From Alphaproteobacteria bacterium (lineage in GTDB: Bacteria > Pseudomonadota > Alphaproteobacteria > JAPOUT01 > G958296285): a DNA stretch of 64,000 nt. The position numbers were made by a program, and so were the translations under genes. Under the pieces are notes generated by a model. It ran no database searches. It saw only the letters and a program-made list of their open reading frames with translations, and was not told the DNA's origin. Shown here piece by piece: positions 6,919-55,872 of the stretch. Position 1 is the stretch's first letter, and each line of letters starts with the position of its first letter. The DNA lies in assembly GCA_965209065.1 (NCBI GenBank), contig OZ242373.1, positions 320,567 through 384,566 of the forward strand, read 5' to 3'.

Positions 6919-8718
6919 ATGTTTAGCACAAAATCATATAGGACGCACACCTGTTGTGAGCTGGGTCGTGGCGAGATTGGCGAGTCGGTTCGGCTTTCGG
7001 GCTGGGTTCACCGCAAGCGCGACCATGGCGGGCTTTTGTTCATCGACCTGCGCGACCATTATGGCATCACGCAGTGCGTGTTCGCGCCCGAGAGCCCTCA
7101 TTTTGAGGCGATGGCGCACATACCGAACGAATCGGTGATTTGCGTTGATGGCGAGGTCGTCGCCCGCCCCGACGACACCGAGAACAAGGAGCTGACCACT
7201 GGGGATATAGAGATTCAAGTCAAGGAGGTGGAGGTTTTGTCGAAAGCGGCGGAGTTAGCCTTGCCGGTGTTCGGCGAGCCTGATTACCCCGAAGACATTC
7301 GGCTTGCTTGGCGCGTGCTGGACTTGCGGCGCAAGGGGCAGCACGAGCGTATTATGTTGCGTCAAAAGGTGATTAGCTCGATGAGAGAGCGAATGACTGA
7401 CGCCGGCTTTATGGAATTCCAAACGCCCATTCTCACGGCGGGGAGTCCTGAAGGGGCGAGGGATTTTGTCGTGCCGAGCAGACTCCACGCGGGGAAGTTT
7501 TATTCTTTGCCGCAAGCGCCGCAAATGTTTAAGCAGCTGATTATGATGGGAGGCTTTGACCGCTATTTCCAAATAGCCCCTTGCTTTAGGGACGAGGACG
7601 CGCGCGCCGACCGCTCGCCGGGTGAATTTTACCAGCTTGATGTGGAGATGAGCTTTGTCGTTCAAGAGGACGTGCTGCGCACGATAGAGCCGATTTTACA
7701 CGGCTTGTTCGAGACCTTCGCGCAAGGACGGCAGATTTCTCCCCAGCCGTTTGAGCGGCTTACCTATAAAGATGCGTTAAGTCTTTACGGCACGGATAAG
7801 CCTGATTTGCGCAACCCGCTCAAAATTTATGACGTGAGCGATTGTTTTATCGCTGAGGGCGTTTCGTTTAAGGCGTTTCGCTCGGTGGTGGAAGGCGGCG
7901 GCGTGGTGCGCGCGATTGCCGTGCCGAATGTTGCCGAGCAGCCGCGTTCTTTTTTTGATAAGCTCAACGACTGGGCGCGTAGCGAAGGCGCGGCGGGCTT
8001 GGGCTATATTATTTTCAAGAAAGAGAATGAGGGTTCGGGTCCTATCGCAAAGTTTATTCCCGCCGAGCAGCAGAAGGAAATAGCAACCTGCACAGGTGCC
8101 AGCACGGGTAGCGCGGTATTCTTTATTTGCGACAAGCCCAAACCCGCGCAACGCTTCAGCGATTTAGCGCGGCAAAAAATTGCGCACACACTGGGCTTAA
8201 TTGACGAGAACAAATTTCACTTTTGCTGGATTGTCGATATGCCAATGTTCGAGGTAGGTGAAGAGAGCGGGGTGCTAGAGTTTTCGCATAATCCTTTTTC
8301 GATGCCGCAAGGCGGGCTAGAGGCATTGGCGCAAAAAGAGCCGTTAGATATTCTGGGTTATCAGTATGATATTGTCTGTAATGGCGTGGAGCTGTCGTCG
8401 GGCGCGATAAGGAATCATCGTTTAGATATATTGTTTAGGGCGTTTGAGATTGTCGGCTGGAGCGCGGCTCAAGTGACGGCGAGCTTCCCTGCGATGGTGC
8501 GCGCGCTATCGTGTGGAGCGCCGCCGCATGGCGGCATCGCGCCGGGCATCGATAGGATAGTGATGTTGCTCGCCGGCGCGGATAATCTGCGCGATGTCGT
8601 TATGTTTCCGCTCAATCAGCAAGGCGAGGACTTGCTTTTGGGTGCGCCCGCCGAAATTCCGCAGAAGCATTTACAGGAGCTTCACTTAAAGCACCTGCCA
8701 CCCCCCAAAAAGCCCTAA
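6919..8718 (+). CDS. aspS: aspartate--tRNA ligase
   Basis: 599 aa class II aaRS with anticodon-binding OB fold, GAD insertion and motifs 1-3 (GGIAPGIDRIVML). Confidence 0.95.
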   Translation: MFSTKSYRTHTCCELGRGEIGESVRLSGWVHRKRDHGGLLFIDLRDHYGITQCVFAPESPHFEAMAHIPNESVICVDGEVVARPDDTENKELTTGDIEIQVKEVEVLSKAAELALPVFGEPDYPEDIRLAWRVLDLRRKGQHERIMLRQKVISSMRERMTDAGFMEFQTPILTAGSPEGARDFVVPSRLHAGKFYSLPQAPQMFKQLIMMGGFDRYFQIAPCFRDEDARADRSPGEFYQLDVEMSFVVQEDVLRTIEPILHGLFETFAQGRQISPQPFERLTYKDALSLYGTDKPDLRNPLKIYDVSDCFIAEGVSFKAFRSVVEGGGVVRAIAVPNVAEQPRSFFDKLNDWARSEGAAGLGYIIFKKENEGSGPIAKFIPAEQQKEIATCTGASTGSAVFFICDKPKPAQRFSDLARQKIAHTLGLIDENKFHFCWIVDMPMFEVGEESGVLEFSHNPFSMPQGGLEALAQKEPLDILGYQYDIVCNGVELSSGAIRNHRLDILFRAFEIVGWSAAQVTASFPAMVRALSCGAPPHGGIAPGIDRIVMLLAGADNLRDVVMFPLNQQGEDLLLGAPAEIPQKHLQELHLKHLPPPKKP

Positions 8719-8820
8719 AAATCATACGAATTAAATACTTGGGCTTGCCTTAAGAGTAGCATTTGTGTAATGATTCTAGATTAAGGGGTTGGGTTAAGTA
8801 AATCATCACTGGAGGAAGCT

Positions 8821-9195
8821 TTGGGTGTAGAAAAAATAGATTTAGCAAAACAAGGGCTTGGCCGTGATATTTCTATTGGACTTTTAAGTGTTTTTTTTGG
8901 AATGTCTTTAGGTTTCATAACAGGGGGAGGGCTTTTAATTCCCCCGAAAGTTTATTTTCACAGCTACTTTGTTCTTTTATCTCTTTCTCTTATAGTTTCT
9001 GCAGTGTCAGCGTTTATGGCAATGTATGGAGTGCGTTTATTTGTAAAGAAAGATTTCTCCGCGCGTGTGATAGTTGGAGTAATTTCTAGCGTTATTGTGC
9101 TGACCTCTTCTTCTATAATTTTAATTTGGTATTTAGGACGCTATACAAAAATATTACATCCGCTTTGGTGGTTCCTTGGTTTTTCAGGAAAATGA
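8821..9195 (+). CDS. small multi-TM membrane protein, paralog 1, in an AT-rich islet
   Basis: 124 aa hydrophobic protein. Clearly paralogous to the next ORF (RDISIGLLSVFFGMSLGFITGG vs RDFMIGFLSAFVGAIYGFFLGA). Confidence 0.55.
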   Translation: MGVEKIDLAKQGLGRDISIGLLSVFFGMSLGFITGGGLLIPPKVYFHSYFVLLSLSLIVSAVSAFMAMYGVRLFVKKDFSARVIVGVISSVIVLTSSSIILIWYLGRYTKILHPLWWFLGFSGK

Positions 9196-9530
9196 AACAG
9201 ATAAGTTTATATAAAAAAGAATCTATGCGTGATTTTATGATTGGCTTTTTAAGTGCTTTTGTGGGAGCTATTTATGGTTTCTTTTTAGGGGCAATGTTCC
9301 TAACAAACCCAATGAGAGATTTCGAACGCTTTGTCGTTGGGTTTTCATCCTATTTTCCTATACTTCTTAGCGTGTTGGTTCTTGTGGGGATAGCCGTAAT
9401 ACATCTAGCCTTGTGGAAAATTTCTTCTGAACAAACTAGAACGATTATAACTGTTTTATTTTTTATTACTTATGGTATAAGTTTAACTTGGTTTTCATTT
9501 TATGCTTGGGATAGTAATTTTTTCTTTTAA
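9192..9530 (+). CDS. small multi-TM membrane protein, paralog 2
   Basis: Start chosen at MKQISLYKK. The ATGA overlap with the stop of paralog 1 suggests translational coupling. Confidence 0.55.
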   Translation: MKQISLYKKESMRDFMIGFLSAFVGAIYGFFLGAMFLTNPMRDFERFVVGFSSYFPILLSVLVLVGIAVIHLALWKISSEQTRTIITVLFFITYGISLTWFSFYAWDSNFFF

Positions 9531-9597
9531 AATAAAACATATAGGAGGAAATGATGGTGCTATGCTTAAAGCTCATCATTGAAGAGGGAGGTTTAAA

Positions 9598-10017
9598 TTG
9601 AAATTCTTAAATATGAATATGATTATACCATTCAAAATGCTTACAAGGCTTTTATCGCTTTTGGGAGGCATGCACATAATTTTTAAACTTCTTATTTTTA
9701 TACCCGGTGTTGTTCTCGGATCATTTTTTGCATTTCTTACGCTTGTGGGTGTTGGAATCCGTCCTGATGAAGAAATTTCTGCTAATGAAGTTCTTTTAAA
9801 AGCTATTCAAGTTTTCTTTTACCTCCTTTGGGCGTTTGGTGTCCCTGGGCTGATATTGTTTCTTGTTTTTAGTTTATCTGTATTGCTTTTTGAGCCAGCA
9901 AGTAAGCGCGCGCCCGATTTTGCACTCCAGGTGAGTTCAGTACTTTTTTTTCTACTTTTTGTTTCTATAACTTGGTGGATAACAGCAAAAGTTCTCATAA
10001 TTGATATGATTTTTTAA
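9598..10017 (+). CDS. small multi-TM membrane protein 3, a more distant relative of the two upstream paralogs
   Basis: 139 aa. TTG start 8 nt after a GAGGGAGG RBS (alternative ATG at 9613). Four predicted TM helices. Confidence 0.5.
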   Translation: MKFLNMNMIIPFKMLTRLLSLLGGMHIIFKLLIFIPGVVLGSFFAFLTLVGVGIRPDEEISANEVLLKAIQVFFYLLWAFGVPGLILFLVFSLSVLLFEPASKRAPDFALQVSSVLFFLLFVSITWWITAKVLIIDMIF

Positions 10018-10166
10018 TTTTTACTTCTGCTTTTTTCGGCGAGTCCTATTGGGCTAGCTTTTCCCCTATGGTATAGGGCATTTACCCCCCCCCAAAGCCT
10101 CAAAATTGGGTTGCGAACAAAAAAGAATCATGCTATAAGTAATTGCACCAATAAAAGAGGTGCTAA

Positions 10167-11666
10167 ATGAAACGGGAGCAAATCGCTGAGGCTTTAACTT
10201 TTGATGATGTCTTGCTAAAGCCTGCCATGTCTGATGTTCTGCCGAACCAAACCGATATTACCAGCCAATTAACCAGAGGCATAAGGCTGAATATCCCGCT
10301 CATCTCTGCGGCGATGGATAGCGTGACCGCCGCGAAAATGGCTATCGCTATGGCGCAAGCCGGCGGCATCGGTATCATTCACCGCAATATGACGATAGAA
10401 AAGCAAGCCGAGCAAGTGCGGCTGGTCAAAAAATATGAGTCGGGCATCGTGCGCAATCCCGTCACGATTATGGAGAACAAGAACCTCAACGATGCACTTG
10501 TTTTAATGAGAAGCCATAAAATATCGGGCATTCCGGTTATCAATGAGGCGAAAAAGCTCATCGGCATTTTGACGAACCGCGATGTGCGCTTCGCGACCGA
10601 CACCAGCCAGCCGGTCAATCAACTGATGACGAAAGACAACCTTATCACGCTAAAAGAAAAGGATTTTCTCAACGGCGCGGGCGAGGCGAAAGCAAAACAA
10701 TTATTTCACCAGCACCGCATAGAAAAAATTCCTATTGTTGATGAGAGCGGACAATGTTCGGGCTTGCTGACCGTCAAGGATATAGAGAAATCTGCCACCT
10801 TCCCCAACTCTAGCAAAGACGAAGGCGGGCGGTTGTTGGCGGGTGCTGCGATTGCTACCGGTGAAAATGGGTTGCAACGCGCCGAAGCCCTCATCGCCGA
10901 AGGCTGTGATGTCATCGTGCTAGATACGGCGCACGGACACTCAAAAAATGTTATTGAATGCCTCGCTACCTTGCGCCGCAATTATAACGAAACGCAATTC
11001 ATCGCGGGAAACATCGCGACCGCCGAAGCGGCAAAGGCGCTGATTGATAAAGGCGTTGATGCCATCAAGGTTGGCATAGGACCGGGCTCTATCTGCACGA
11101 CGCGGATGGTTGCGGGTGTCGGTGTGCCGCAGCTTACCGCTATCATCGAAACCGCCTCCATAGCCAAGGATGCCGGCGTTCCTATTATCGCTGACGGCGG
11201 CATAAAGTTTTCGGGTGATTTGGCGAAGGCGATTGCCGCCGGCGCGGACTGCGCTATGGTGGGAACGCTTCTCGCTGGCACGGACGAAACGCCGGGCGAG
11301 GTTTTTCTCTATCGCGGCAGGAGTTATAAATCCTATCGCGGCATGGGTTCGCTCGGCGCGATGGCGTCTGGCTCGGCGGATAGATATTCTCAAGGACATA
11401 TTAGCGATAACGATAAATTCGTTCCCGAAGGCGTTGAAGGCAGAGTGCCTTATAAAGGCGCGGTGAGCGCTATCCTATACCAGCTTACCGGCGGTCTGCG
11501 CGCCGCGATGGGATATACCGGCAATGCCTCTATCAAGCAGATGCAAAATGAAGCAGAATTTGTTAAAATGTCGCCAGCAGGCTTGCGCGAAAGCCATACC
11601 CACTCGGTTATGATAACGCGCGAAGCCCCCAACTACCCCGCAGGAGGAACGACATGGGAAGACTAA
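10167..11666 (+). CDS. guaB: IMP dehydrogenase
   Basis: 499 aa TIM-barrel with a tandem CBS insert. Catalytic loop [11 protein letters not shown]. Confidence 0.95.
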
Positions 11667-12127: not shown

Positions 12128-13718
12128 TAAAGTCGCGGAACAGATTTTACTTATAGATTTTGGCTCGCAAGTAACGCAACTCATTGCGCGTCTTGTCCGT
12201 GAGCTAAATGTTTATTGTGAAATTGTTCCTTTTGATAAGGTCGAGCGCTTTTTAGATGGCAACAAAGATAGCGTGAAGGGCATTATTCTATCGGGTTCGC
12301 CGGCGAGTCTGGCTCAAGACGATGCGCCCTTGCCGCCCGAAATAATTTTTCAGTTAGGACTGCCAGTGCTAGGCATTTGCTACGGGCAGCAAGTGATGTG
12401 CGAAATGCTCGGCGGCAAGGCAGAGCCAACGCAAAAACGAGAATATGGCAGAGCCACGCTTGAACTTACAGACACTTCTCTCGCGACCGAGTCGCTCGCG
12501 ACCGAGTCGCCCCTACTAGATGGCATAGAAAATAGCAGCCAAGTTTGGATGAGCCATGGCGATAAGGTTGTGCGGTTGCCGCAAGGTTTTGTCGGCATCG
12601 CGCAAAGCGAGCATTCGCCTTTCGCCGCGATTGCTGATGAGGCGCGTGCTTTTTATGGCGTGCAGTTTCACCCTGAGGTATCGCACACGCCGATTGGTAA
12701 GAAGCTGCTTGAGAATTGGATATTCAAAATTGCCAAAGCCAGCGGCGAGTGGAGCATGGATGCTTTTCGAGAGAAAGTGCTTGCGTCTATCCGCGCGCAG
12801 GTGGGCGAGGGGCAGGTGATATGTGCTTTATCGGGCGGCGTGGATTCTGCGGTGTGCGCGAAGCTCATTCACGAGGCGGTGGGCGACAAGCTCACGTGCG
12901 TTTTTGTCGATAACGGACTTTTACGCAAGGGCGAGCGCGATGAGGTCGCTCATCTCTTTCGCGATAAATTTAATATCCCTTTGGTTGTGGTTGAGGCGCA
13001 GGAGCAATTTCTAAACGCCTTGCAGGGTATCACCGAGCCTGAAGCGAAAAGAAAAGCTATCGGAAAAATTTTTATTGATGTTTTTGAAGCGGAAGCGAAT
13101 AAATTATCAGGCAAAAAATCAGCCGTGAAATTTTTAGCGCAAGGCACGCTCTACCCCGATGTTATTGAAAGCGTTTCGGTTTCGGGCGCGCCAAGCCACT
13201 TGATTAAAAGTCATCACAATGTTGGCGGATTGCCCGAAAGAATGAATCTCCAGCTTGTTGAGCCGCTGCGCGAATTGTTTAAGGACGAGGTAAGAGCGCT
13301 CGGCAAACTTTTAGGGCTGCCCGATAGTTTTGTTTTGCGCCATCCTTTTCCCGGTCCGGGTCTTGCCATTCGTGTGCTGGGTGAGGTTTCGCGCGCAAGC
13401 TGCGACCTCCTGCGTGAGGCGGACGCTATCTTTTTAGATGAAATTAGAAAGGCGAAGCTCTATGACGATATTTGGCAAGCCTTTGCGGTGCTTTTGCCGG
13501 TGCGCTCGGTAGGCGTGATGGGAGACGCGCGCGCTTATGACAGGCTCTGCGCCCTGCGCGCGATAACCTCGCGCGATGGTATGACGGCTGATGTTTATCA
13601 TTTTGCGCCTGAATTTCTAAATAAAGTGGCGGCGCGCATCGTCAATGAGGTTGAGGGGATTGGCAGAGTCGTCTATGATATAACCTCTAAACCACCTGCT
13701 TCGATTGAATGGGAATAA
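12111..13718 (+). CDS. guaA: GMP synthase (glutamine-hydrolysing)
   Basis: GATase1 domain (GICYGQQ) followed by the ATP-PPase SGGVDS loop and C-terminal dimerisation domain. Start taken at the internal Met (MLPPNK...). Confidence 0.9.
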
Positions 13719-53876: not shown

Positions 53877-54752
53877 ATGGAATACAAGTTAGAATTTTTT
53901 AATAAAAATATTGACGATTCTATAATACATGGAAATGCTCTTGATGTTTTAAAGTCTCTGAACGATCAACTGGTAGATTGTATTATCACTAGCCCCCCAT
54001 ATTATAAGCAAAGGGATTATTTTACAATATCGCAGATAGGGAGCGAACTTACAGAAAAACAATATGTTAATTCGTTAGTTCAAGTTTTTTTAGAAGCAAA
54101 AAGAGTATTAAAAGATACTGGAACTTTTTGGCTAAATTTAGGTGACAAATATGTGGATAATAATCTATTGGGCTTGCCTTGGCGAATAGCTTTAGCTTTG
54201 AAAGAAGTGGGGTGGGTGTTAAGATCTGATATTATATGGCATAAGCCAAACGCAATGCCTTCTTCAGTTAAAAATAGACCCACCATAGACCATGAGTACG
54301 TCTTTTTGTTTGTAAAAACGCAAAAATATTTTTATGATGCTGATGCAATAAGAGAGCCACATATAACTTTTTCTGATAAAAGTAAAATGTCTGGAGGAAG
54401 AAATCATTTTGGAGTACGCAATGGAACTCCAGAAAATGGGAAAAACTCAGGGAATCCAAATCTTCATAACGGTAGATGGGACCAAGCATTCCACCCACTT
54501 GGACGCAATAAGAGAACAGTTTGGAGCGTCCCATTATCAAAATTTCGTGACGCACATTTTGCAGTCTTTCCAGAGAAGCTAATAGAACCATGTATTCTTG
54601 CAGGATGTCCTGTCGATGGGTTAGTATTAGATCCGTTTATGGGATCTGGAACTACAGGTATAGTGGCAATGAAAAATGCTAGAAGGTTTTTAGGAATAGA
54701 TATAAATAAGAAATATTGTAATATGGCTAAGAGAAGACTTATAAACCTCTAA
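53877..54752 (+). CDS. beta-class DNA amino-methyltransferase, SPPY-type (probably N4-cytosine)
   Basis: CIITSPPYY motif IV precedes the DPFMGSGTTG motif I, and AHFAVFPEKL is present. It lies in an AT-rich islet. Confidence 0.85.
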   Translation: MEYKLEFFNKNIDDSIIHGNALDVLKSLNDQLVDCIITSPPYYKQRDYFTISQIGSELTEKQYVNSLVQVFLEAKRVLKDTGTFWLNLGDKYVDNNLLGLPWRIALALKEVGWVLRSDIIWHKPNAMPSSVKNRPTIDHEYVFLFVKTQKYFYDADAIREPHITFSDKSKMSGGRNHFGVRNGTPENGKNSGNPNLHNGRWDQAFHPLGRNKRTVWSVPLSKFRDAHFAVFPEKLIEPCILAGCPVDGLVLDPFMGSGTTGIVAMKNARRFLGIDINKKYCNMAKRRLINL

Positions 54753-55617
54753 ATAAATTGATTTTTTCTACTAGAGCATTGGTTAGTTTTTGTGTCACAT
54801 CAATAATTTGATTTGGGTTCATGTTGATGTATATAAAATCTTTACAGTCGAGATCTGCAAGATTTCCCGTCCACGATTCTGCAATTATAATTGGTAAACA
54901 ATCATGCCCTTCTTCATAAGCAACTCTTATTGCTTTATGAATATCTCTTGTAAAAAGATTAGAATGTCCTCCCCCCATAGTTTCTCTTGTTTTTACAGGA
55001 ACTAAAATAGATTTCGAACCTTTTTTTATTTGAATGTCATAGGTTTCTCCGCTTATGCTTTTTTGTTTTTCACTTACATGTATTGGCAAGTTGTTTTTTT
55101 TAAATAATTCTATTAAGACTCTTCTAACAATTGCTTCAAACAAGTTGCCTTTAATAGCCCTCCTGCTTCCTTCAAGTCTATCTATAACAACTTCTATAAT
55201 TGCATGCCATTCCCAACTTTTTTTATCTGGAAATATGGTTATTAAATTTTTTCTAACTTCATTTATTAAAAATGATTTTTTTTGATATGTATTGCCTTCA
55301 ATAGATGACAAAATAGGTCTAAGCCTTTGTTCTGGGGCATCCCTAAGTATCCATCCACACATAAGCCACTTTGCTTTATCTGATTTGTATGCCCTAGCCA
55401 CTCCATCATATAATTTTATATTATCTGGCATTTGGTGGGCTAAAAATCTTTCTAATACATGCAATGCTTTTGTATCGTCTTTTTCATTTACAAAATCATG
55501 TAAAGATTTATATCCGTTATTATTTAAAAATTTAATTATGTAATAAAAATAATCCTTATTTTTATCAGCGATAATTTTTAATTCTTTTAGACGGATATTT
55601 TCTATAATATACTCCAT
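54739..55617 (-). CDS. putative Type II restriction endonuclease partnered with the adjacent MTase
   Basis: It is convergent with the MTase, overlapping by 14 nt, and shares its low GC. No recognisable family. Possible PD-(D/E)xK-like ...YDIQIK.../...VPVKTRE.... Start at the internal MEYIIEN. Confidence 0.45.
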   Translation of the reverse strand: MEYIIENIRLKELKIIADKNKDYFYYIIKFLNNNGYKSLHDFVNEKDDTKALHVLERFLAHQMPDNIKLYDGVARAYKSDKAKWLMCGWILRDAPEQRLRPILSSIEGNTYQKKSFLINEVRKNLITIFPDKKSWEWHAIIEVVIDRLEGSRRAIKGNLFEAIVRRVLIELFKKNNLPIHVSEKQKSISGETYDIQIKKGSKSILVPVKTRETMGGGHSNLFTRDIHKAIRVAYEEGHDCLPIIIAESWTGNLADLDCKDFIYINMNPNQIIDVTQKLTNALVEKINLFRGL

Positions 55618-55872
55618 AGCTCTCCATAGTTCACATAGATTGTTTATAAAGAGGAAAAGAAAGAAGCACAAGAGCTTAAAGCAAAAAATATATGCTTCTT
55701 TGGTTTGTTCTTTAATTAGCCTCTAGTTTCAGGAGTAAGGAATACGTAAAACACATAAAAAATATGTAAATTGCCTTTATCTTGTTTAAACATATAAGCC
55801 CTTAAAAAACCTGCTTGCCTCGCTGGGGGCGATTTGCTATCATTAAGACTCAAACTTGAAATGGAGGCAAAA

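Follow-up and report, generated by a model that had tools for sequence, protein, structure and literature searches.

Immunity proteins of the E1-type pore-forming colicins have three transmembrane (TM) helices in approximately 100–115 amino acids (aa) and are encoded beside the toxin gene. In Caulobacter crescentus, the CdzABCDI system includes CdzI, a three-TM inner-membrane immunity protein for bacteriocins exported by a type I secretion system (T1SS). CdzI has no obvious homologs (PMC5380434). Immunity genes also occur alone. Orphan immunity genes are reported for Pseudomonas pore-forming bacteriocins (PMC5358913). Orphan or tandem immunity arrays are also reported, namely contact-dependent inhibition (CDI)/Rhs orphan modules and type VII secretion system (T7SS) TsaI/EsaG strings (PMC3150448, PMC9484751). 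The clip-and-link RTX proteins FrpC and ApxIVA carry a self-processing module (SPM) with an Asp-Pro site (PMC7078468). Here, we describe an AT-rich islet of three small membrane-protein open reading frames (ORF1, ORF2 and ORF3) between the housekeeping genes aspS and guaB. The islet lies in a 64,000-nucleotide stretch of an alphaproteobacterial genome (contig OZ242373.1, positions 320,567 to 384,566). We call this whole stretch the window and use its coordinates throughout.

With a probability of roughly 0.6, our preferred interpretation takes the islet for an array of orphan immunity-type genes that derive from an effector island with HlyB/HlyD type I secretion. It would be a recently acquired scrap of a toxin-secretion cluster that retains only the small membrane-protein genes. 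We favour this reading because the island has genes for soluble secreted-type proteins and for polytopic membrane proteins in alternation, and because the TM genes are the intact genes in three islets where soluble-protein genes are truncated. Close exporter and effector copies are also absent from the window's contig. Finally, the ORF1/ORF2 pair is conserved long-term in two organisms, while cassettes turn over at strain level. An immunity function is suggested by this gene context.

The islet and the ORF1/ORF2 family

GC content across the islet (8750–10100) is 0.30–0.39 in 300-bp windows. The aspS and guaB flanks have values of 0.46–0.59 and the 64-kb window averages approximately 0.50. The islet contains the following genes.

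8821–9195, plus strand: ORF1, 124 aa, TTG start, ribosome-binding site (RBS) GGAGG at 8811–8815, three predicted TM helices
9192–9530, plus strand: ORF2, 112 aa, ATG start, three predicted TM helices
9598–10017, plus strand: ORF3, 139 aa, TTG start, GGGAGG at 9583–9588, three to four predicted TM helices

Helices were counted from a hydropathy scan. The ORF2 start overlaps the ORF1 stop in an ATGA at 9192–9195. A first-pass annotation of the window had reported a GC drop at 8.75–10.16 kb, three multi-TM ORFs of 124, 113 and 139 aa, the ATGA overlap and a strong RBS ahead of ORF3. All of this is borne out, with three predicted helices in each protein, except that ORF2 has 112 residues and not 113. 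For ORF3, gene callers choose an alternative start (ATG 9637) that yields 126 aa. The true start may lie downstream of TTG 9598, despite the GGGAGG at 9583–9588. An AlphaFold2 (AF2) model of ORF1, for which four sequences were aligned, shows three long helices, but its confidence is low (predicted local distance difference test, pLDDT, 62; predicted template modelling score, pTM, 0.36).

Codon usage also sets the islet apart. GC at third codon positions (GC3) is 0.26–0.28 for ORF1–3, compared with 0.39–0.64 for core genes of the window, membrane-protein genes of similar hydropathy included. Hence, the low GC of the islet is not a mere by-product of hydrophobic coding. The values are on par with those of a putatively foreign restriction-modification pair at 53877–55671 (GC3 0.21–0.25).

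ORF1 and ORF2 are paralogs, as first proposed from their shared motifs (34% identity across 77 aa, E=6e-7). The expectation that they would match no named family also held. Models from Pfam, NCBIfam, PADLOC and PHROGs gave zero significant matches for ORF1–3, and none for the TM proteins of the related loci L002 and L164 described below. At E<=1, hmmscan of Pfam-A and NCBIfam returned sub-threshold noise only (Vma12, Glycophorin_A, DUF3169, Sdh membrane anchor), and the Pfam models for colicin and microcin immunity were unmatched by the islet ORFs. The suggestion of a holin-like family found no support in PHROGs, where the best match was no lower than E=0.08. Phage, plasmid and IMG/VR collections gave zero matches.

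A word-indexed search of 5.8 billion proteins with ORF1 retrieved its own alleles only. We also ran an exhaustive search of 1.84 billion representative proteins with an ORF1+ORF2 profile. There were four matches: P0001 (an ORF1 allele), P0004 (an ORF2 allele), P0005 and P0006. P0005 was rejected as a spurious repetitive protein. P0006 is a genuine full-length relative of 126 aa on a contig of a sister metagenome, from a different organism (flank GC 0.55–0.60). This is the only other organism in which the profile search found the tandem pair. There, in loci L163 and L167, P0006 is the first gene and is ORF1-type (27–30% identity, E ~1e-7 to 4e-9). The second gene encodes an ORF2-type protein of 114 aa (E ~4e-7). 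The tandem is thus present as ORF1-type and ORF2-type in both organisms. Therefore, the duplication is older than the split between the organisms and both types have been kept together. The invariant motif K-x4-RD-x3-G-x2-S-x3-G-x3-G, running into TM1, is common to family members. Protein homology between the organisms is accompanied by little DNA similarity. ORF1 and ORF2 define a new family.

In the second organism, the pair again sits inside an AT-rich islet with no toxin gene, and again varies between strains. The L163 and L167 pairs share 90% DNA identity, compared with 94–97% for their flanks. The ratio of non-synonymous to synonymous substitution rates (dN/dS) between these strains is 0.98 for the ORF1-type gene and 1.52 for the ORF2-type gene, compared with 0–0.23 for flanking genes. 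Such fast protein evolution fits diversifying selection, and would fit relaxed constraint equally.

The second organism's islet has further features. An 81-nt direct repeat of the 3' end of a DUF2332 gene is present at L167:9367–9446 and 9849–9929 (55 nt at 100%, 26 nt at 92%). It encloses a 402-bp insert with an 88-aa gene, immediately upstream of the ORF1/ORF2-type pair. The sister strain has a minus-strand 191-aa TM236-like gene at the spot of this insert (compare L163:2887–3492; TM236 is introduced below).

The window has a second AT-rich islet, at 53877–55671 (GC 0.32–0.35, GC3 0.21–0.25), with convergent overlapping genes. These encode an N6/N4 DNA methylase (PF01555, E=1e-56) and a 310-aa protein matching no family, which is probably the restriction endonuclease partner. 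The locus looks like a horizontally acquired restriction-modification system.

A matching gene pair in a type I secretion island

P0004 lies on ctg49828, a 96.9-kb contig at 7.67x coverage from the same metagenome as near-identical strain contigs. Loci L164 and L169–L171 are parts of this contig. Window positions 8768–9557 match L164:9577–10363 with 98.9% identity over 790 bp. The matching pair is in an island encoding a HlyB/HlyD T1SS. The gene order in L164 is HlyB-type ABC exporter, HlyD, gene A, gene B, ORF1', ORF2', gene C, TM236 and a 2460-aa protein. The exporter matches TIGR01846 (HlyB-type T1SS) with 988 bits and the adaptor matches TIGR01843 (HlyD) with 332 bits. The remaining genes of L164 are as follows.

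Gene A: 269 aa, six TM helices
Gene B: 544 aa, soluble
ORF1' and ORF2': the pair, between genes B and C, three TM helices each
Gene C: 757 aa, soluble
TM236: multi-TM, after gene C
Giant protein: 2460 aa, with cadherin/Big_9, subtilase, P-domain and RTX repeats

Gene C residues 608–740 are an FrpC-type SPM (PDB 6sjw_A, phmmer E=1.9e-27). The alignment to 6sjw opens at PLVLDLDGDGIE and the residue immediately before is Asp, giving the canonical Asp-Pro clip site. With this scissile site in its SPM, and with HlyB and HlyD upstream, gene C falls among the FrpC-type proteins. A central region is common to B, C and the giant protein.

The products of genes B and C have zero TM segments and no hydrophobic hairpin. 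Pfam and NCBIfam identified no colicin-type pore-forming domain in either. The N-terminus of B has a non-significant match to TseH-like proteins, a type VI secretion system (T6SS) effector family (PF25218, residues 107–157, E=0.22). Within the N-terminal 230 aa of B (L164:7976–8665), a His...Cys arrangement can be seen by eye (GHANVSF ... NTCVNFVNDV). It is reminiscent of permuted NlpC/P60 or LRAT-type hydrolases, and is offered as a lead only.

The C-terminus of B reads ...MFDEIPHEAYNDSRLRGWVK. Around L164:~12600–12690, gene C stops at a G-run and, one base on, the next frame reads ...GALMFDEIPHEAYNDSRLRGQVK, which is the gene B tail. The frame break is probably a homopolymer read error in this 7.7x long-read contig, and gene C most likely carries the C-terminal tail of gene B. 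A 49-nt stretch, comprising the B-type tail and an RBS, has three copies in L164. Each is directly upstream of a TM-protein gene. Gene A and TM236 were considered as fused duplicates of the three-TM unit, and BLASTP and hhalign rejected this. The word-indexed homolog search with gene A returned only itself.

The T1SS locus is inside an island of low GC that spans at least 37 kb (L170/L169/L171, ctg49828 positions ~4,000–41,300). Other cargo includes a PLD nuclease, a SNF2 helicase with MmeI-type methylase, DUF2513, SIR2_2+DUF4020 and a GNAT-like acetyltransferase. A P4-type tyrosine integrase and a second restriction-modification pair (HaeIII-type endonuclease and D12 methylase) are also present. 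The island adjoins tRNA-Tyr/Gly-tuf-secE-nusG-rplKA. The core genes beside it have GC of 0.48–0.52 and GC3 of 0.48–0.55, similar to core genes of the window. The island combines defence with competition.

Detached copies, insertion scar and recent spread

Exact-sequence and 90%-cluster look-ups placed AspRS (the aspS product), GuaB, ORF1 and ORF2 of the window on a 1,687,333-bp (1.69-Mb) contig. HlyB, HlyD, B, C, DUF4020 and three further island proteins fall into 90% clusters whose sole contig is the 96.9-kb one. The 1.69-Mb contig is absent from these clusters, which rules out only relatives of >=90% identity on it. The TM236 cluster has a member, P0024 (159 aa), on the 1.69-Mb contig outside the 64-kb window. 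A further TM236 orphan is found in an islet between xthA and ilvD in locus L168, with 95.9% DNA and 91.6% protein identity to the island copy. Gene A has an orphan copy in L002. Detached chromosomal copies thus exist for every TM-protein gene of the island, but in the 90% clusters there are none for the exporter or for the large soluble proteins. In three islets (aspS-guaB, xthA-ilvD and DUF2332-SDR), the intact genes are TM genes and the soluble-protein genes are truncated ends alongside.

The xthA-ilvD islet occupies L168:8790–10400 (ctg50339, 222 kb, same metagenome) and is of low GC. It contains a 93-aa lipoprotein-like ORF, a 56-aa Cys-rich ORF and the TM236 orphan.

Between aspS and guaB, truncated gene ends and a duplicated sequence surround the three ORFs.

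6919–8718, plus strand: aspS (aspartyl-tRNA synthetase), intact left flank with Pfam tRNA-synt_2, OB and GAD domains
8691–8722, plus strand: direct repeat, left copy, consisting of the aspS 3' end and stop codon
8719–8767, no strand assigned: junction spacer, 49 nt from the aspS stop to the start of island homology
8769–8801, plus strand: gene B remnant, the last 10 codons (NDSRLRGWVK) and stop
9544–9583, plus strand: truncated start of gene C, with RBS and ATGATGG; the leftover reads as a 10-codon mini-ORF
10013–10093, plus strand: decayed gene A remnant, the 3' part of a six-TM gene that is intact in L002 and L164
10078–10110, plus strand: direct repeat, right copy, a pseudo-remnant in which a deletion between poly-C runs has shortened the aspS 3' end
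10167–11666, plus strand: guaB (IMP dehydrogenase), intact right flank with Pfam IMPDH and CBS domains; its leader follows the repeat

The repeat scan paired 8691–8709 with 10078–10096. Since the aspS 3' end is directly duplicated around the islet, the islet is an insertion. In tblastn, gene B residues 535–544 (L164) are 100% identical at window 8769–8798. Homology to L164 stops exactly at the ATGATGG that starts gene C, with a breakpoint after 9557, and the window keeps the first two codons of that gene. L002 diverges at the same point. The gene A remnant was recovered by blastn (L164:7785–7863 against window 10013–10090, 82%), tblastn and pairwise alignment. In a four-way alignment, the spacer at 8719–8767 is identical in the window, L001 and L002; L164 is unrelated up to column ~80. 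The initial claim that the islet holds no toxin, transposase or other cargo is therefore right for intact genes, since no intact toxin or transposase gene is present, and wrong for fragments, since remnants of truncated toxin-locus genes do occur. Toxin-linked homologs detached from cognate secretion genes (>=90% identity) on the 1.69-Mb contig, truncated B and C ends alongside, foreign GC3, an insertion scar and the cassette swap with L002 described next are the marks of an orphan class.

Past ATGATGG, haplotype L002 has no ORF3. Other TM ORFs take its place, along with a gene A that is intact and shares 97% aa identity with its counterpart in the island. Gene B is represented by its first 16 codons, fused to a decayed stretch of ~100 bp (L002:4248–4348) that duplicates the last ~300 bp of aspS, in pieces of 51 nt (94%), 30 nt (93%) and 21 nt (90%). 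L002 represents an older state of the islet. The window form arose by an ORF3 cassette swap and deletion between the poly-C runs. The duplicated gene 3' end is seen with aspS here and with the DUF2332 gene in the second organism, which suggests that the latter repeat is a scar of the aspS type and that an insertion mechanism is shared. With regard to an integron cassette array (CALIN), no integrase ORF is near the islet, and the cassette boundaries are truncated gene ends. Only short imperfect inverted repeats (14–19 nt, 76–88% complementary), none at ORF boundaries, were found by a repeat scan that did not include a dedicated attC search. An Rfam scan of the islet gave zero families at gathering score.

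The best AspRS relatives from GTDB species genomes and JGI metagenomes, which are Alphaproteobacteria, reach only 58–64% identity and keep rnd-aspS, but not the adjacency of aspS and guaB. Hence, no empty insertion site was recovered. The alphaproteobacterial lineage of the window has a small genome and is poorly sampled; at species level, ERZ25069786 is the one metagenome in which it was seen.

ORF3 stands apart from the pair. It had been taken for a diverged relative of ORF1 and ORF2, and a three-member family was rejected: BLASTP gave E=7 and E=0.1, and hhalign with a five-sequence family profile gave a probability of 0.5%. Among 5.8 billion proteins, the word-indexed search found its own alleles only. 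ORF3 is the same in the window, L001 and L166, save for a 6-nt indel at 9610–9615 in L001. This indel is an in-frame deletion at the ORF3 N-terminus. We interpret ORF3 as an apparently unrelated orphan cassette that replaced TM genes of the L002 type.

We compared the window with haplotypes L001, L002 and L166. Flank divergence among haplotypes is 1.2–1.7% and almost all synonymous; L002 flanks are 97.7% identical. Between strains, aspS differs at 48 synonymous and 10 non-synonymous sites, and guaB at 31 and 1. Conversely, 8677–9403 and 9525–10091 have zero substitutions in any pairwise comparison of the window, L001 and L166. Each zero-divergence tract would be expected to contain ~7–12 substitutions (Poisson probability 1e-3 to 4e-6). 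ORF1 is identical in the four haplotypes and L164. The sole differences within the islet are 6–8 substitutions clustered at 9404–9524, in the 3' half of ORF2. Between the window and L001 or L002, seven fall within ORF2 (5 non-synonymous, 2 synonymous), and the remainder are beside a 3-nt indel at the ORF2 end and in the stop codon. Because islet divergence is near zero compared with the flanks, the islet is younger than the divergence of the strains and has spread by recombination.

Upstream of the tract that begins at 8677, aspS positions 8000–8500 have 22–30 substitutions per 500 bp, compared with ~4–10 elsewhere. Such elevated divergence would fit an import of recombination tracts with their ends in the 3' region of aspS.

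Weight of the readings and comparison with known systems

If the islet encodes immunity, ORF1 and ORF2 would be inserted in the inner membrane. They would probably form a heteromer of 3+3 helices via the conserved TM1 segment K-x4-RD-x3-G-x2-S-x3-G-x3-G. There, they would neutralise the envelope-acting domain of B or C, whichever secreted protein is cognate, on its arrival from producer cells. As a result, a non-producing host would be resistant. Expression could come from aspS read-through or from the imported upstream region; no intrinsic terminator or convincing promoter was found inside the islet, and aspS, the islet and guaB follow one another without a terminator between them. That B and C are toxic, and that ORF1 and ORF2 protect, we infer from gene context.

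The main rival is that the islet is non-functional debris. A decaying island fragment would have hitch-hiked into the aspS-guaB spacer, and its ORFs would be intact only because the insertion is recent. Such a history accounts for the truncated genes on both sides, the gene A remnant and the decayed aspS duplicate. There are hardly any substitutions, leaving too little time for decay, and the homologous pair in L163/L167 has dN/dS of ~1–1.5. The lack of an ORF3 homolog anywhere points the same way. Debris sits less well with TM-protein genes being the intact genes in at least three independent islets. The pair also keeps its length, order, three-TM layout and invariant motif at 27–30% identity across two organisms, so long-term purifying selection is required. 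RBSs and translational coupling are retained as well. We consider debris improbable, though it survives better than the other alternatives.

Next, the TM proteins could be accessory factors: inner-membrane helpers for the secretion, anchoring or maturation of adjacent T1SS substrates. A loose analogy is FrpC, for which a dedicated partner protein, FrpD, is reported (PMC5233953). In L164, the TM genes are interleaved with T1SS substrates, and the failure to recognise a toxin domain in B or C would suit helpers too. However, the orphans persist and spread where the 1.69-Mb contig has no close T1SS or substrate copies. A helper with no substrate is unlikely to be kept in three separate loci plus a second organism. 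Moreover, FrpD is an outer-membrane lipoprotein, unlike the polytopic inner-membrane proteins here. We regard this explanation as quite unlikely.

We give still less credence, very little in fact, to phage-derived or defence membrane proteins (a holin, superinfection exclusion protein or abortive-infection effector) unrelated to secreted toxins. Small multi-TM proteins in AT-rich foreign DNA are what this would predict, and the donor island carries SIR2_2/DUF4020, the SNF2 helicase with MmeI-type methylase and the PLD nuclease. But PHROGs and PADLOC had no significant matches, and the phage, IMG/VR and plasmid collections yielded nothing. The immediate island neighbours of the pair are T1SS substrates, not defence genes. 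Finally, and least likely of all, low GC, strong negative AT skew and zero database family matches might indicate T-rich non-coding DNA that reads as hydrophobic ORFs, but this is effectively refuted for ORF1 and ORF2 by the absence of three same-strand stop-free runs of >=112 codons from all shuffles of the islet (0/2000), by the RBSs and ATGA coupling, and by protein-level paralogy and cross-organism homology despite little DNA similarity.

Orphan immunity remains the reading that we prefer, and several points count against it. Islet diversity is near zero, hence the intact ORFs could be merely young. The dN/dS of 0.98 and 1.52 in L163/L167 is explained equally well by relaxed constraint. 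Toxic domains were not recognised in B or C by Pfam and NCBIfam, nor by PDB sequence searches with gene B, and to our knowledge FrpC-type proteins are not known as antibacterial toxins. The producer contig is unassignable to the window species, with agreement only in sample, coverage and core-gene GC. The window's genome might yet contain a secretion/effector locus of <90% identity. AF2 modelled ORF1 poorly (pLDDT 62). The first-pass annotation had suggested an orphan immunity-like cluster for a membrane-acting or bacteriocin-type toxin. The pair's copy in a T1SS locus, the truncated B and C genes and the absence of T1SS genes (>=90% identity) from the 1.69-Mb contig speak for that suggestion; the inclusion of ORF3 and the holin-like option were not supported.

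A broader proposal can be made tentatively, and we would expect it to fail sooner than to hold. FrpC-type clip-and-link T1SS proteins might include interbacterial toxins, whose N-terminal effector is freed by Ca2+-triggered Asp-Pro cleavage outside the cell. They would be neutralised by a hitherto unknown, paired three-TM inner-membrane immunity family. This family would circulate as recombinase-free cassettes, inserted downstream of housekeeping genes with duplication of the gene 3' end.

Should the orphan-immunity interpretation be right, there would be a new membrane immunity family acting as a conserved heterologous pair. HlyB/HlyD-exported FrpC-type self-processing proteins would be tied to bacterial competition, giving an obscure class a testable function. 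A producer island and several immune-only haplotypes would coexist in one community of a small-genome (>=1.69 Mb) alphaproteobacterial lineage. The duplicated gene 3' ends would hint at a simple, integrase-independent spread of immunity cassettes. If wrong, the islet is just a young fragment of a degraded island.

Among known systems, polymorphic-toxin orphan arrays (CDI/Rhs, T6SS and T7SS TsaI/EsaG) are alike in having immunity genes without a functional toxin, beside toxin fragments (PMC3150448, PMC9484751). They also resemble the islet as tandem paralogs that are reshaped by recombination and vary between strains. The differences are the HlyB/HlyD route here and unrelated protein families. 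In addition, the islet is in a housekeeping spacer between duplicated gene 3' ends, and not downstream of a toxin locus.

Colicin E1-type immunity is similar in size, three-TM inner-membrane architecture, a toxin-gene neighbour and stand-alone orphans in non-producers. The hydropathy scan and the low-confidence AF2 model both give a small protein of the 3–4 TM kind. Conversely, there is no Pfam immunity match at E<=1, B and C have no pore-forming domain, and export is by a T1SS rather than a lysis protein.

CdzI is likewise small, is predicted to have three TM helices and fits no recognisable family. It, too, comes from an alphaproteobacterium, where its gene lies next to those for an ABC/HlyD exporter and T1SS-exported proteins (PMC5380434). 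Its locus, like the islet, is horizontally acquired and strain-variable (PMC5380434). The exporter linkage holds for the L164 copy of the pair and not for the detached window copy. Cdz toxins (CdzC/CdzD) are small glycine-zipper proteins, whereas the neighbours here are soluble and of 544, 757 and 2460 aa. Unlike Cdz, the island encodes FrpC-type modules in C and the giant protein, the latter also having RTX repeats. CdzI is a single protein and not a paralog pair, and the islet was compared with it by description only.

The likeness of gene C and the giant protein to FrpC/ApxIVA includes the Asp-Pro site, EF-hand-like Ca2+ motifs and a nearby HlyB/HlyD exporter. FrpC and ApxIVA have been studied as host-interaction or virulence factors, and we know of no immunity partner for either. 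In the island, by contrast, the SPM proteins alternate with polytopic membrane proteins, orphan copies of which occur at other loci. Such linkage of FrpC-type self-processing T1SS proteins with immunity-like membrane genes is unexpected.

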